Shown here: piece after piece, positions 51,929 to 54,162 of the stretch | Position numbering within the stretch: the first letter of the stretch is position 1 | Layout of the letters: each line of letters starts with the position of its first letter | Assembly (NCBI GenBank): GCA_947465765.1 | Contig: CANIAP010000004.1 | Location: forward strand, 25,613 to 89,612 | Direction of reading: 5' to 3' | Length of the DNA: 64,000 nt | Source: a bacterium | GTDB taxonomy: Bacteria; Margulisbacteria; Marinamargulisbacteria; SXXA01 | Made by a program: the position numbers and the translations under genes | Notes under the pieces: generated by a model | What the model saw: the letters and a program-made list of their open reading frames with translations, nothing else | Told to the model about the DNA's origin: nothing | The model's database searches: none

Positions 51929-52843
51929 ATGTTATACGCACCAAGCCCGCTCTCAACTCAATCCCACTTTCCTACCAAGTCGGCTCTGCAACAAACATCC
52001 CTTGCACCATCAGTGACCCCCCAATCCATTATTGGCCAATTAAATCGTGTCTCCGGAAATTCCATGGGCGACCGAGTGAATTCTCACCTTGCGCTTTTGA
52101 ATCAACTTACCGGCGCGATGAACACAATGTCCCCGACCGACAGACAAGTCATTCAACGAAATATTTCTAATCATTACAGCGCGAACTCATACATCGGGAG
52201 CGCTGTTACGACTCGCCTTAATCCCCAACAGCGAAGTTTGCTATTGGGCGCAGAACAACAGGTCAAGTTTGACCCCACCCTCGTCACACCAATCGAAATG
52301 CCTGAAGCCTTGGCGTTGCTTAAAATAATATCCGCCCCGATTGCAGCGGCAACCGTGCCAGATCAAACCCGAAAAATTATTAAAGCCGACCCCAAGGAAC
52401 CATCGGTAACACCCGTCGTGACTCAAGCAAAAGCAGCCCATGTTCACCGGGCAGTCACTCCTGTTGAGAACCTTGCAACCCTGATTCAAACCACCCACGA
52501 ATGGGCCGATCATGTTGCGATACAAGCCACGGCTAACGCAAAAAAAATCAACATTATAGTATTCGACACGCGAACCCAAAAAACCAGCATCATCGAATCC
52601 GCAACCCCATCCAACAACCACGTGGGCGTGTCTTACAGCGGAGGCCACTACCAAGCGGTCGTTGACCACGGTAGAACGGTCGAAGCAATGAAAATTGTCG
52701 GCGATTGTTTTTATGACTCCGTTGCCTACGGATTAAACCGTCAAGCAGGCGCTAAGGAAACAGCACAAAGCCTCCGCGCATCGGCCGCAACAGAGCTAAG
52801 AACCAACTCACACTCTTATGCCGCATTTATTACAGCGGACTAA
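51929..52843 (+). CDS. OTU-like cysteine protease with permuted motif order, paralogue 1 (304 aa); candidate secreted effector
   Basis: HEWADHVAIQATANAKKINIIVFD...VSYSGGHYQAV (OTU variable-loop plus His block, His240) precedes VGDCFYDSVAYGL (OTU Cys block, Cys260). The Ser/Pro/Thr/Gln-rich N-terminus has no acidic residue in the first 47 aa and no signal peptide. Confidence 0.55.
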   Translation: MLYAPSPLSTQSHFPTKSALQQTSLAPSVTPQSIIGQLNRVSGNSMGDRVNSHLALLNQLTGAMNTMSPTDRQVIQRNISNHYSANSYIGSAVTTRLNPQQRSLLLGAEQQVKFDPTLVTPIEMPEALALLKIISAPIAAATVPDQTRKIIKADPKEPSVTPVVTQAKAAHVHRAVTPVENLATLIQTTHEWADHVAIQATANAKKINIIVFDTRTQKTSIIESATPSNNHVGVSYSGGHYQAVVDHGRTVEAMKIVGDCFYDSVAYGLNRQAGAKETAQSLRASAATELRTNSHSYAAFITAD

Positions 52844-52860
52844 GGGATTGCTCCAACGAG

Positions 52861-52892
52861 CTAAAGCAAGATTAAATCACGGAGGTTCCCCA
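52861..52892 (+). repeat. 32-nt leader repeat, copy 2 (includes GGAGG SD)
   Basis: Identical to 51896-51927. It ends 1 nt before ATG 52894. Confidence 0.95.
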
Positions 52893-52893
52893 G

Positions 52894-54162
52894 ATGTTCC
52901 CCTCAAGCCCACAAAATTTACGACCCCAACCAAATTCCGGTTCCACCCCGTCCACAAAAATTAACTCCGTTGATCAAGCTATACAACGGGTGAATTCAGC
53001 CCCAATAACATCTTCCAGCGATGCCATGGTTGCATTACGGACTCTTTCAGCTCTTCCATACACAGACTATTCCATCAAAGTAGCCGCCCATTCACAATTG
53101 ATTCAAACTCTTTATTCAAGCTTAGGTGCGGATGAAAAAGCCACCTTCGTAGCAGATGTTAAAAAATACTATAACGACTATCCCTACCTGGGAAGCCAAG
53201 TCAGCGCAAAGTTACCCGCAGATCAAAAGCAGGCTATTTTTGGAAATGCAGCGGGTATTAAATTTGAGCCCACGCTCTATGCCGAGCTTAAAAGATCTAG
53301 TATCTCACAGGCGCCAATCGATCAAATTATAACCGCGATTGCCGCACAAGAAGCGCCGGCCCCCGAAATTACAATACCAAAAGCATCGCAGCTATCTGCC
53401 GAGGCGTCCGCAAAAGACCTGTACCTCCAAGGGATCAGAACCACCGCGATGTTAGGCGATCATGAGCTGCAACCTCTGGCGAACTTGATTGGACGCCCAA
53501 TTGTGGTCGTTCGCGCAGAACCCCGTGGGCGCATGGGGGCCAACAATGTAGAAGTGATTGCCTACCCTGAGGGACGTGCGGAAACCCCAGCCAACGCAGT
53601 GTTCGTCCAAAATATTATGAATGGTCATTTCAAAACATTCACCCCAAACTCAGGTGCCCCAGTGTTACCTGGGACAGCGCTACCGGGCACCGCCAGAGAA
53701 GGGGATTATAGAGGGGCAGGATCCAATGATTGTCTAATCGCATCCATCAAAGGTAGTGGAGTGGATTTTGGAATAAGTAATCGCGAAGTTAGGGGATTAT
53801 GTGCGAACTACCAAGATACTCACGGTCTCGCAGACAATTATGTTCCAGACGTTGTAGACCGTGGGCGTGTTGCCATGTTCGGAACAGAGGCCACCATCCC
53901 AATAGGGTTCATCGGCCCTCTCATGATCAAGAATTCCGACGATGTGTGGGCACAAGGAGAGTATAGCGGAGGTCGTATTGGAAATTGGGAGGTTCGCAAC
54001 GACAAGGGGCTATTTGCGGTCTCCTATGATCAAGATACTCACGCGCCAATTCAGGTAACACAGACGGGGGAATTCCTACCCGATGGGAAGATGGGCCTCC
54101 TTGATCGCCCAACTGAGTTTAGCGACATTAATACCGCTCTCCACTTAATTACCGTCCATTAA
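52894..54162 (+). CDS. OTU-like cysteine protease with permuted motif order, paralogue 2 (422 aa); candidate secreted effector
   Basis: MLGDHELQPLANLIGRPIVVVR...NIMNGHFKTF (His245) precedes GSNDCLIASI (Cys280). The N-terminal half is paralogous to the upstream gene (Y....Y(I/L)GS.V...L...Q....G.....KF(D/E)PTL), with an extra ~140-aa C-terminal region. Confidence 0.55.
   Translation: MFPSSPQNLRPQPNSGSTPSTKINSVDQAIQRVNSAPITSSSDAMVALRTLSALPYTDYSIKVAAHSQLIQTLYSSLGADEKATFVADVKKYYNDYPYLGSQVSAKLPADQKQAIFGNAAGIKFEPTLYAELKRSSISQAPIDQIITAIAAQEAPAPEITIPKASQLSAEASAKDLYLQGIRTTAMLGDHELQPLANLIGRPIVVVRAEPRGRMGANNVEVIAYPEGRAETPANAVFVQNIMNGHFKTFTPNSGAPVLPGTALPGTAREGDYRGAGSNDCLIASIKGSGVDFGISNREVRGLCANYQDTHGLADNYVPDVVDRGRVAMFGTEATIPIGFIGPLMIKNSDDVWAQGEYSGGRIGNWEVRNDKGLFAVSYDQDTHAPIQVTQTGEFLPDGKMGLLDRPTEFSDINTALHLITVH

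Follow-up and report, generated by a model that had tools for sequence, protein, structure and literature searches.

Two types of bacterial OTU protease with a circularly permuted catalytic domain have been described. In EschOTU of Escherichia albertii (PDB 6W9S), the catalytic residues occur in the order H-aromatic-N...C, a loop joins the former termini and new ones have opened near the helical arm, an arrangement that was at the time "only observed in EschOTU" (PMC7396840). The second type comprises EmcB of Coxiella and many relatives in the Legionellales (EmcB/CoxDUB), which are circularly permuted OTUs with the Cys helix at the C-terminal end (PMC12501173). The bacterial OTUs characterised in these two studies, both permuted types included, are deubiquitinases of host-associated bacteria and are described there as effectors or predicted effectors (PMC7396840, PMC12501173). 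In this study, we analysed two adjacent genes, P1 and P2, on contig CANIAP010000004.1 of an uncultured freshwater bacterium that probably belongs to the Margulisbacteria, the products of which carry OTU motifs with the His block ahead of the Cys block. The stretch analysed was a 64-kb window, to which the coordinates below refer, plus a further 10 kb to its right (74 kb in total). A view of the arrangement as unprecedented would be wrong, since permuted domains had already been reported for EschOTU in 2020 (PMC7396840) and for the EmcB family in 2025 (PMC12501173).

Order of the OTU motifs in P1 and P2

P1 and P2 were divided into the following parts:

51929-52843, plus strand: P1, open reading frame (ORF) of 304 aa, with a disordered S/T/P/Q-rich N-terminus, a family-specific helical domain, a linker and a putative permuted OTU domain
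52019-52330, plus strand: P1 N-terminal helical domain (aa 31-134), common to P2, P0049 and the L009 member
52448-52669, plus strand: P1 OTU "His half" (aa 174-247), with W192, H240 (52646-52648) and Q242
52682-52840, plus strand: P1 OTU "Cys half" (aa 252-304), with E252, D259, C260 (52706-52708) and R283
52894-54162, plus strand: P2, ORF of 422 aa, with a disordered N-terminus, a helical domain, a linker, a putative permuted OTU domain and a C-terminal beta domain
52954-53268, plus strand: P2 N-terminal helical domain (aa 21-125), modelled with a predicted local distance difference test score (pLDDT) of 79-91 and homologous to the P1 N-domain
53401-53649, plus strand: P2 OTU "His half" (aa 170-252), with N243, H245 (53626-53628) and K247
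53710-53853, plus strand: P2 OTU "Cys half" (aa 273-320), with N278, D279, C280 (53731-53733) and R300
53872-54147, plus strand: P2 C-terminal beta-rich domain (aa 327-418), six strands with pLDDT 78-92 and no Pfam match

The two genes are tandem paralogues in which the His precedes the Cys, as had been annotated; both ORFs were found at the positions given initially, and BLASTP aligned their products with 25% identity over 163 aa (E = 2e-7), the signal falling mainly in the N-terminal domain and in the helix and strand with which the OTU part begins. The residue numbers of the catalytic pairs, H240/C260 in P1 and H245/C280 in P2, were also correct. A P1-family profile matched the N-domain of the P2-family member P0011 with an E value of 3e-8, and searches of Pfam and other profile libraries matched the helical N-domain of P1 and P2 to no known family.

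Native P1 scored 31.3 bits against the Pfam OTU model PF02338 (gathering score, 23.3), the match consisting of two pieces in reversed order. The Cys block (residues 258-302) aligned to profile positions 4-50, and the otubain model PF10275 placed the His block (residues 186-242) at its C-terminal end, positions 173-239 of 243. Compared with individual proteins and models, the Cys half aligned to residues 14-51 of wMelOTU and 30-65 of yeast OTU1, in addition to Pfam OTU positions 4-50, and for the His half the counterparts were residues 77-139 of OTU1 and the C-terminal portion of both the Pfam OTU and the C65 model. De-permuted constructs were then made by cutting the domain and re-joining the Cys half ahead of the His half. 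De-permuted P1 gave a single collinear match to Pfam OTU with 40.6 bits, and a de-permuted profile built from three P1-family members matched OTU1 (3BY4) with an E value of 5e-7 in one alignment of 117 columns, spanning from "DCFYDSVAYG" to "GGHYQAV", i.e. from Cys to His. All 15 PDB matches of this profile were OTUs. In the control, the native-order P1 profile yielded two fragments in reversed order with a weaker score.

Native P2 had no Pfam match. De-permuted P2 scored 16.2 bits against PF02338 (E = 0.015), which is below the gathering score, over positions 5-127 of 128; after de-permutation all nine members of the P2 family matched PF02338 and no other family (best E, 2.3e-5), and the family profile matched human OTUD5 (E = 0.0014) in an alignment that crossed the artificial junction. 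The control with the native P2 domain profile aligned the His half to OTUD5 residues 101-177 (E = 0.0022) and, in reversed order, a small additional fragment. Comparison of the P1 and P2 OTU domains alone by hhalign gave a weak match (E = 0.029 over 38 columns), and a joint MAFFT alignment of both families misplaced the Cys blocks, so that trimmed domain alignments were used instead. Membership in PF02338 therefore stood for P1, with its 31.3 bits above the cut-off, and was suggestive for P2, for which the native search was empty. The earlier proposal that the motif order reflects circular permutation and not chance was borne out, as de-permuted P1 and P2 were collinear with canonical OTUs and the native order gave reversed fragments. 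Judged from these profile comparisons, P1 is very probably a permuted OTU, and P2 is probably one as well.

Homologues found by a word-indexed search fell into 2 clusters for P1 and 9 for P2, the P1 orthologues being 96% and 70% identical and the nine P2 homologues 37-100% identical. When the P1 profile was run exhaustively with HMMER against 1.84 billion representative proteins, it matched only four, including P0049, a member with the same architecture and order, and P0050, an OTU of canonical order that carries both P1 motifs in the usual order. By sequence search, then, this appears to be a very small family. The catalytic Cys and His were invariant in 13 of 13 family sequences, and because of this invariance, together with the score of P1 above the Pfam gathering score, the order H...C in P1 and P2 is more than a chance occurrence. 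It was also noticed that P0050 has, besides a normal N-terminal Cys block, the sequence "KMQIIKDCL" about 20 residues past its His block (residues about 375-399), which aligns with "AMKIVGDCF" of P1; this second Cys-like block could be a relic of a duplication-deletion route to permutation, or a coincidence.

AlphaFold predicted three folded domains for P2 with a mean pLDDT of 74, the OTU domain being mostly at 63-90. In this model, the OTU domain consisted of two helices, strands ending in strand 245-251, which is begun by H245, a short strand and helix 280-287, which is begun by C280; as modelled, it is the OTU/papain arrangement in swapped order. The Cys was placed at the N-terminus of a helix and the His-aromatic pair (H245-F246) at the start of a strand, and in the low-confidence P1 model the corresponding elements were H240-Y241 and a helix from residue 259. 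Three results, however, weigh against the OTU assignment: the P1 model, built from a three-sequence alignment, had a pLDDT of 46 (N-domain helices, 65-85); a Foldseek search of the PDB with the full-length P2 model gave nothing significant, the OTU domain of A20 ranking second at an E value of about 1 and TRABID ninth; and, as mentioned above, native P2 is missed by Pfam. Foldseek is not permutation-aware, and its null result is probably due to the multi-domain length of P2 combined with the permutation. The two structural results would favour the view that the motifs resemble those of OTUs by chance and that neither protein has the OTU fold. We regard this as extremely improbable, given that P1 exceeds the Pfam gathering threshold, that de-permutation gave 117 collinear columns with a solved OTU at 5e-7 with no PDB match outside the OTUs (15/15), and that the P2 family (9/9) matched PF02338 only.

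The third catalytic position differs from that of known OTUs. The residue at His+2 is Gln in P1, P0002 and P0049 and Lys or Arg in the P2 family, compared with Asp, Asn or Glu in known OTUs, and P2, with Leu-Gly at the place of the Trp of P1 and EschOTU, has lost the residue that in EschOTU holds the Gly-Gly of ubiquitin; both features weigh against the enzymatic activity proposed below. A Glu upstream of the Cys is conserved in all members, 8 residues before it in P1 (E252) and 11 residues in P2 (E269, 53698-53700, invariant and situated in the His-to-Cys loop ahead of the Cys half). In A20 and ceg23, the acidic residue of the triad is supplied from upstream of the Cys (PMC7396840), and by analogy, the upstream Glu might act as the third triad acid in P1 and P2. 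Another way to view the divergence of P2 is that only P1 is enzymatic, P2 being a pseudo-protease or binding module that keeps the fold and not the OTU chemistry. Its lack of a native Pfam match, the K/R at His+2, the Leu for Trp, the weak similarity of its OTU profile to that of P1 and its higher ratio of nonsynonymous to synonymous substitution rates (dN/dS, 0.37-0.63; 0.25 for P1 vs L005) are all consistent with this view. It is nevertheless very unlikely, since Cys280, His245, N243, N278 and E269 are the same in all nine P2-family sequences, with identities as low as 37%, no part of P2 is better conserved across the family than the His half (61-82% identity), and E269 could supply the acid as in A20 and ceg23 (PMC7396840). 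The invariant Cys and His of the 13 sequences, a dN/dS of less than 1 in long-range comparisons and the maintained chromosomal slot (see below) suggest that function has been retained.

We propose that P1 and P2 are diverged paralogues, each with a disordered N-terminus, a helical domain and a flexible linker ahead of a papain-like cysteine protease domain of the OTU type, in which a W/L-G helix would be followed by a beta-sheet ending in the general-base His, a loop of 20-35 residues closing the ancestral termini, the Cys helix and a helical arm. From the conserved residues, they would be thiol isopeptidases or proteases using Cys260/His240 (P1) and Cys280/His245 (P2).

The C-terminal domain of P2 is possibly MORN-repeat-like by its model; in a Foldseek search of viral folds (BFVD), the best matches of the P2 model were pandoravirus MORN or F-box proteins, at a non-significant E value of 0.023. 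The P1 orthologue P0002 (339 aa, L005 5550-6569) has a tail at residues 305-339, "DKGRKAWIFDFNPPGYGF", which aligned with "DRGRVAMFG...IPIGF", where the C-terminal region of P2 begins. This alignment suggests that the ancestor had a C-terminal extension which the P1 of the window lost.

Expression signals, N-termini and strain-level variation

The following features were located upstream of and within the gene pair:

51864-51891, plus strand: sigma-28 (FliA)-like promoter, GAAAT-N15-TCCGATAA, the first T of the TGAAAT box being at 51863; distance to the P1 start downstream, 37 nt
51896-51927, plus strand: P1 leader and ribosome-binding site, copy 1 of an identical 32-nt repeat, with GGAGG
52861-52892, plus strand: P2 leader and ribosome-binding site, copy 2 of the identical 32-nt repeat
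53244-54230, plus strand: hypervariable mosaic segment of P2, from comparison of near-identical strains

A GGAGG Shine-Dalgarno sequence was found 8 nt before each ATG, inside the 32-nt leader, and since each start codon has GGAGG within an identical leader, the starts of P1 and P2, and hence their unusual N-termini, are credible. The leader duplication is exact, with none expected by chance, and the two copies are identical despite about 25% identity of the proteins. It is retained with one mismatch in the sister strains L013 and L014 and absent in L005, L011 and L009. Folding predictions compared with shuffled sequences detected no RNA structure in the duplicated leader, the predicted RNA being less structured than the shuffled controls. 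The identity of the leaders could be due to gene conversion, to recent recombination or to strong selection acting on an unstructured region of translation initiation.

The N-termini had been annotated as rich in S, P, T and Q, free of acidic residues and devoid of a Sec signal, and this description holds: P1 and P2 are the most extreme of the 43 ORFs in the window, being the top two in S+T+P+Q content of the first 30 residues (0.57 and 0.53; median, 0.23), with the first acidic residue at position 48 in P1 and 27 in P2 (median, 9), and no hydrophobic signal-peptide-like stretch was present at either N-terminus. The same character was kept in the relatives, although the actual sequence was not.

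The motif TGAAAT-N15-TCCGATAA lies upstream of P1 and, with identical spacing, ahead of family members at three further loci, L005, L011 and L009; the four loci are diverged, and the spacer and flanks of the motif differ among them. The sequence GCCGATAA is the hallmark -10 element of sigma-28/FliA promoters, and the -10 box here matches this consensus at 7 of 8 positions. In the window, no match other than the one upstream of P1 was both intergenic and in the correct orientation. The one other match, an exact 12/12 fit to the textbook TAAA-N15-GCCGATAA at 15245-15271 (plus strand), lies antisense inside an 815-aa ORF; about 0.008 such matches would be expected by chance, as estimated from the window length and 12 fixed bases, and no plausible ORF was found downstream of it. 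It may be an antisense promoter or a coincidence. As the promoter motif is not repeated before P2 and no terminator-like site was found on the plus strand between P1 and P2, P2 is probably co-transcribed with P1, and the two genes probably share the one sigma-28-like promoter, from which they would be transcribed together.

Comparison of near-identical strains revealed that nucleotide identity in the segment 53244-54230 fell to 49-81% in L014 and 72-90% in L013, with flanks of 99-100%. The synonymous divergence (dS) of P2 was 0.14-0.45 vs 0.005-0.037 for glyQ, i.e. 10-30 times higher, and between L014 and the window the N-domain of P2 was 93% identical and the C-terminal domain 39%. The patches, which differ by strain, look like recombinational mosaicism, typical of genes of conflict or recognition. 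Such a pattern, with a conserved N-domain, variable C-terminal parts, tandem paralogues and recombination patches within P2 (39% vs 93% in the same strain), is what could be expected if the proteins were interbacterial or anti-grazer toxins of the polymorphic type, having an N-terminal trafficking domain, exchangeable C-terminal modules and an OTU-like protease with a toxic or processing role. The probability of this is very low, in that no immunity-like ORF follows P2, glyQ coming directly after it, neither protein contains a T6SS (type VI secretion system), T7SS (type VII), Rhs, LXG or other known trafficking domain, and no plasmid or phage match was found. The specific case of a polymorphic toxin with its immunity gene was rejected on account of the position of glyQ and the lack of a known trafficking domain.

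Chromosomal context and possible export

The neighbours of P1 and P2 are lipoate-protein ligase, CDP-alcohol phosphatidyltransferase, glyQ, glyS, pyrG and aspartate kinase genes, with glyQ beginning 73 nt past P2 in the window and 31 nt past P2 in L014. The slot between the transferase and glyQ holds this family in every relative found, across 37-100% protein identity, except for L009, which is non-syntenic; it contains the P1 type only in L005-L007, in L011 the P2 type directly adjoins the transferase gene, and the window, L013 and L014 have both types. As the slot is occupied in every relative found, it represents a long-standing chromosomal locus and not a mobile island. Searches for P1 and P2 on plasmids and phages, and in PADLOC and NCBIfam, gave no match, and no tRNA or Rfam match was found within the window. 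The L009 member (MAG, metagenome-assembled genome, WBA_2_294; 5550-8574) is a distant one with 34% protein identity and the same promoter motif, located at a contig end next to a 405-aa protein with a weak protein-kinase match (E = 0.0036, HxDxKxxN-like motif) and a 191-aa protein of no known family; this cluster may be a small group of eukaryote-like or effector-like genes.

The initial annotation had connected the pair to a putative type III or IV export island at 11-18 kb. In this region, one gene was recognisable:

10979-11845, minus strand: flagellar FlgE/F/G-family protein (rod/hook), TIGR03506, 90 bits

The other proteins encoded at 10979-18413 on the minus strand, from ORFs of 600, 281 and 815 aa upstream of the flagellar gene, matched no family, and the head of the cluster is formed by two short ORFs that are paralogous to each other (17348-17674, 17689-18027) and by an ORF of 88 aa (18147-18413), after which come a hairpin and a T-run. 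With a FlgE/F/G-family gene as the sole recognisable one and no injectisome or type IV secretion system (T4SS) in the 74 kb, the proposed connection was not supported. The effector-like make-up of the N-termini was confirmed and extends through the family, yet secretion is not proved by it. A type III/IV effector role and a eukaryote-associated lifestyle are thus hypotheses.

The promoter, the N-termini and the hypervariability of P2 lead us to favour export, possibly by a flagellar route, of a protein with a role in the interaction with another organism. Most likely, P1 and P2 would be exported to act on ubiquitin or a ubiquitin-like protein (Ubl) of a eukaryotic partner such as a protist host, prey or grazer. 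That they are active, exported isopeptidases directed at ubiquitin or Ubl is, in our estimate, about an even chance. Several observations are unfavourable to it: no injectisome, T4SS or Dot/Icm gene and no chaperone or eukaryote-like neighbour were detected in the 74 kb; the region has an ordinary GC content and housekeeping genes around it; the samples are freshwater plankton metagenomes with no known host; and the sigma-28 assignment is taken from the motif alone. The more detailed scenario, in which a permuted-OTU deubiquitinase pair of freshwater Margulisbacteria with an independent origin of the permutation is expressed with the late flagellar genes under sigma-28 and delivered by flagellar type III export to a protist, P2 being engaged in an arms race, is distinctly unlikely as a whole. 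Export toward a eukaryote also draws on the flagellar rod/hook-family gene of the window and on the existence of an intracellular animal symbiont among the Margulisbacteria (PMC6784892).

Much of the same evidence could be accommodated if the two proteases were permuted and OTU-type and yet stayed in the cytoplasm, acting within a sigma-28-type regulon on a bacterial substrate, such as a motility or envelope protein or a prokaryotic Ubl conjugate, with no eukaryote involved. This would agree with the stable slot between housekeeping genes in all relatives, the absence of a Sec signal and of a secretion system in the 74 kb, the planktonic freshwater source, the non-canonical third triad residue and the loss from P2 of the Trp that clamps Gly-Gly. 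However, none of the neighbouring genes encodes an E1, E2, Ubl or JAB protein and PADLOC gave no match; a housekeeping protease would not usually vary between strains in the mosaic manner of P2; it is not obvious what a disordered, acid-free N-terminus, conserved as it is, would do in the cytoplasm; and the bacterial OTUs characterised in the two studies cited act on ubiquitin or Ubls of the host (PMC7396840, PMC12501173). We consider the cytoplasmic role somewhat unlikely and retain export toward a eukaryotic partner as the preferred interpretation. A defence-system peptidase (Bil, Bub, or Cap2/3 of CBASS) was also considered for P1 and P2 and discarded, there being no E1/E2/Ubl neighbours and no PADLOC match.

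Elsewhere in the window, a 4452-aa ORF with a hydrophobic N-terminus and no Pfam match was found at 21780-35138 (minus strand), preceded on the same strand by a PorV/PorQ-like protein (35150-36079, below cut-off) and by a protein (36076-36849) with a type-A sorting domain of the type IX secretion system (T9SS; TIGR04183, 28 bits vs a cut-off of 23). Such T9SS-like parts beside a giant protein (21780-36849) are unexpected in a probable Margulisbacteria genome. P1 and P2 were ruled out as T9SS cargo, having no signal peptide and no match to the sorting domain. Regarding the affiliation, ClpC of the window had its nearest named relatives, about 74% identical, in MAGs of Candidatus Margulisbacteria/Margulisiibacteriota, and the presence of SepF, YggS, PBS-type HEAT repeats and a dapF-aminotransferase pair fits a sister group of Cyanobacteria. 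GC skew was negative in every 2-kb bin of the window, and rpmH, yidC, a KH/R3H (jag-like) gene and mnmE were found just to its right. The rpmH-yidC-jag-mnmE set is usually located near the replication origin.

If ubiquitin were the target, P1 and P2 would mark, at the genome level, an interaction of uncultured freshwater Margulisbacteria with eukaryotes. If the detailed flagellar-export scenario, with its independent origin of the permutation, were true, they would point to a lifestyle directed at eukaryotes that had gone unnoticed in a phylum of which little but sequence is known, and to a third, convergent origin of OTU permutation.

Comparison with known OTU proteases

The best sequence matches of P1 and P2 were canonical OTUs, namely OTU1 (3BY4), human OTUD5 (3TMO), OTUB1 and wMelOTU of Wolbachia (6W9R). 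Common to them are 1) (G)DCF/L.. on the Cys helix, 2) W/L-(A/G)-D/.-H.. A...A....I.V, and 3) G-H-Y/F on the last strand. In the canonical proteins, however, the Cys comes first and the His last, and Asp or Asn occupies His+2.

The likeness to EschOTU lies in the reversed triad order (H-aromatic-X...C), with the ancestral termini closed into a loop and the new termini in a helical region, in the Trp-to-His spacing, which is 48 residues in both (W214/H262 in EschOTU and W192/H240 in P1), in a conserved basic residue past the Cys helix (K318 in EschOTU, R283 in P1 and R300 in P2), and in the position of the OTU domain C-terminal to a non-catalytic region. On the other hand, 6W9S was not matched by P1, P2 or their profiles at E values up to 10, whereas OTU1, OTUD5, OTUB1 and wMelOTU were; His+2 is Asn in EschOTU instead of Gln (P1) or Lys/Arg (P2), and P2 is without the Trp; the N-terminal domain is a different one and P2 has an extra C-terminal beta domain; and EschOTU is from an enteric pathogen, in contrast to the uncultured freshwater bacterium studied here.

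With EmcB/CoxDUB, as far as the published description goes, P1 and P2 share the circularly permuted OTU fold, the location of the Cys helix at the C-terminal end of that fold, flanking accessory domains and the occurrence of diverged members. The EmcB/CoxDUB proteins are Dot/Icm type IVB substrates of intracellular Gammaproteobacteria, whereas no Dot/Icm genes occur in the 74 kb here, and their third triad residue is Asn or Glu. In Campylobacter, FedA-D, FspA and CiaI are sigma-28-dependent non-flagellar proteins exported by the flagellar type III system, for which a disordered N-terminus is needed. A possible late-flagellar co-regulation and the disordered N-terminus would be the points of likeness to these Fed-type proteins, the evidence at this locus being a promoter-like motif and one rod/hook gene.

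Placed beside these systems by their sequences, P1 and P2 are a third family of permuted bacterial OTUs, and they would extend the rearrangement to a phylum sister to Cyanobacteria and to an organism not known as a pathogen, which suggests that OTU permutation is recurrent, or ancient, among bacterial OTUs. Searches that depend on motif order would undercount deubiquitinase-like enzymes of bacteria, P2 and all its relatives being unannotated. The variants of the third triad position (Gln, or Lys/Arg with the upstream Glu) and the alleles of P2 offer material on how much change the permuted fold tolerates. Compared with the two types described before, the features of its own that this family appears to have are the N-terminal helical domain, the C-terminal beta domain of P2, the unusual third catalytic position, the sigma-28-like promoter and a hypervariable paralogue.

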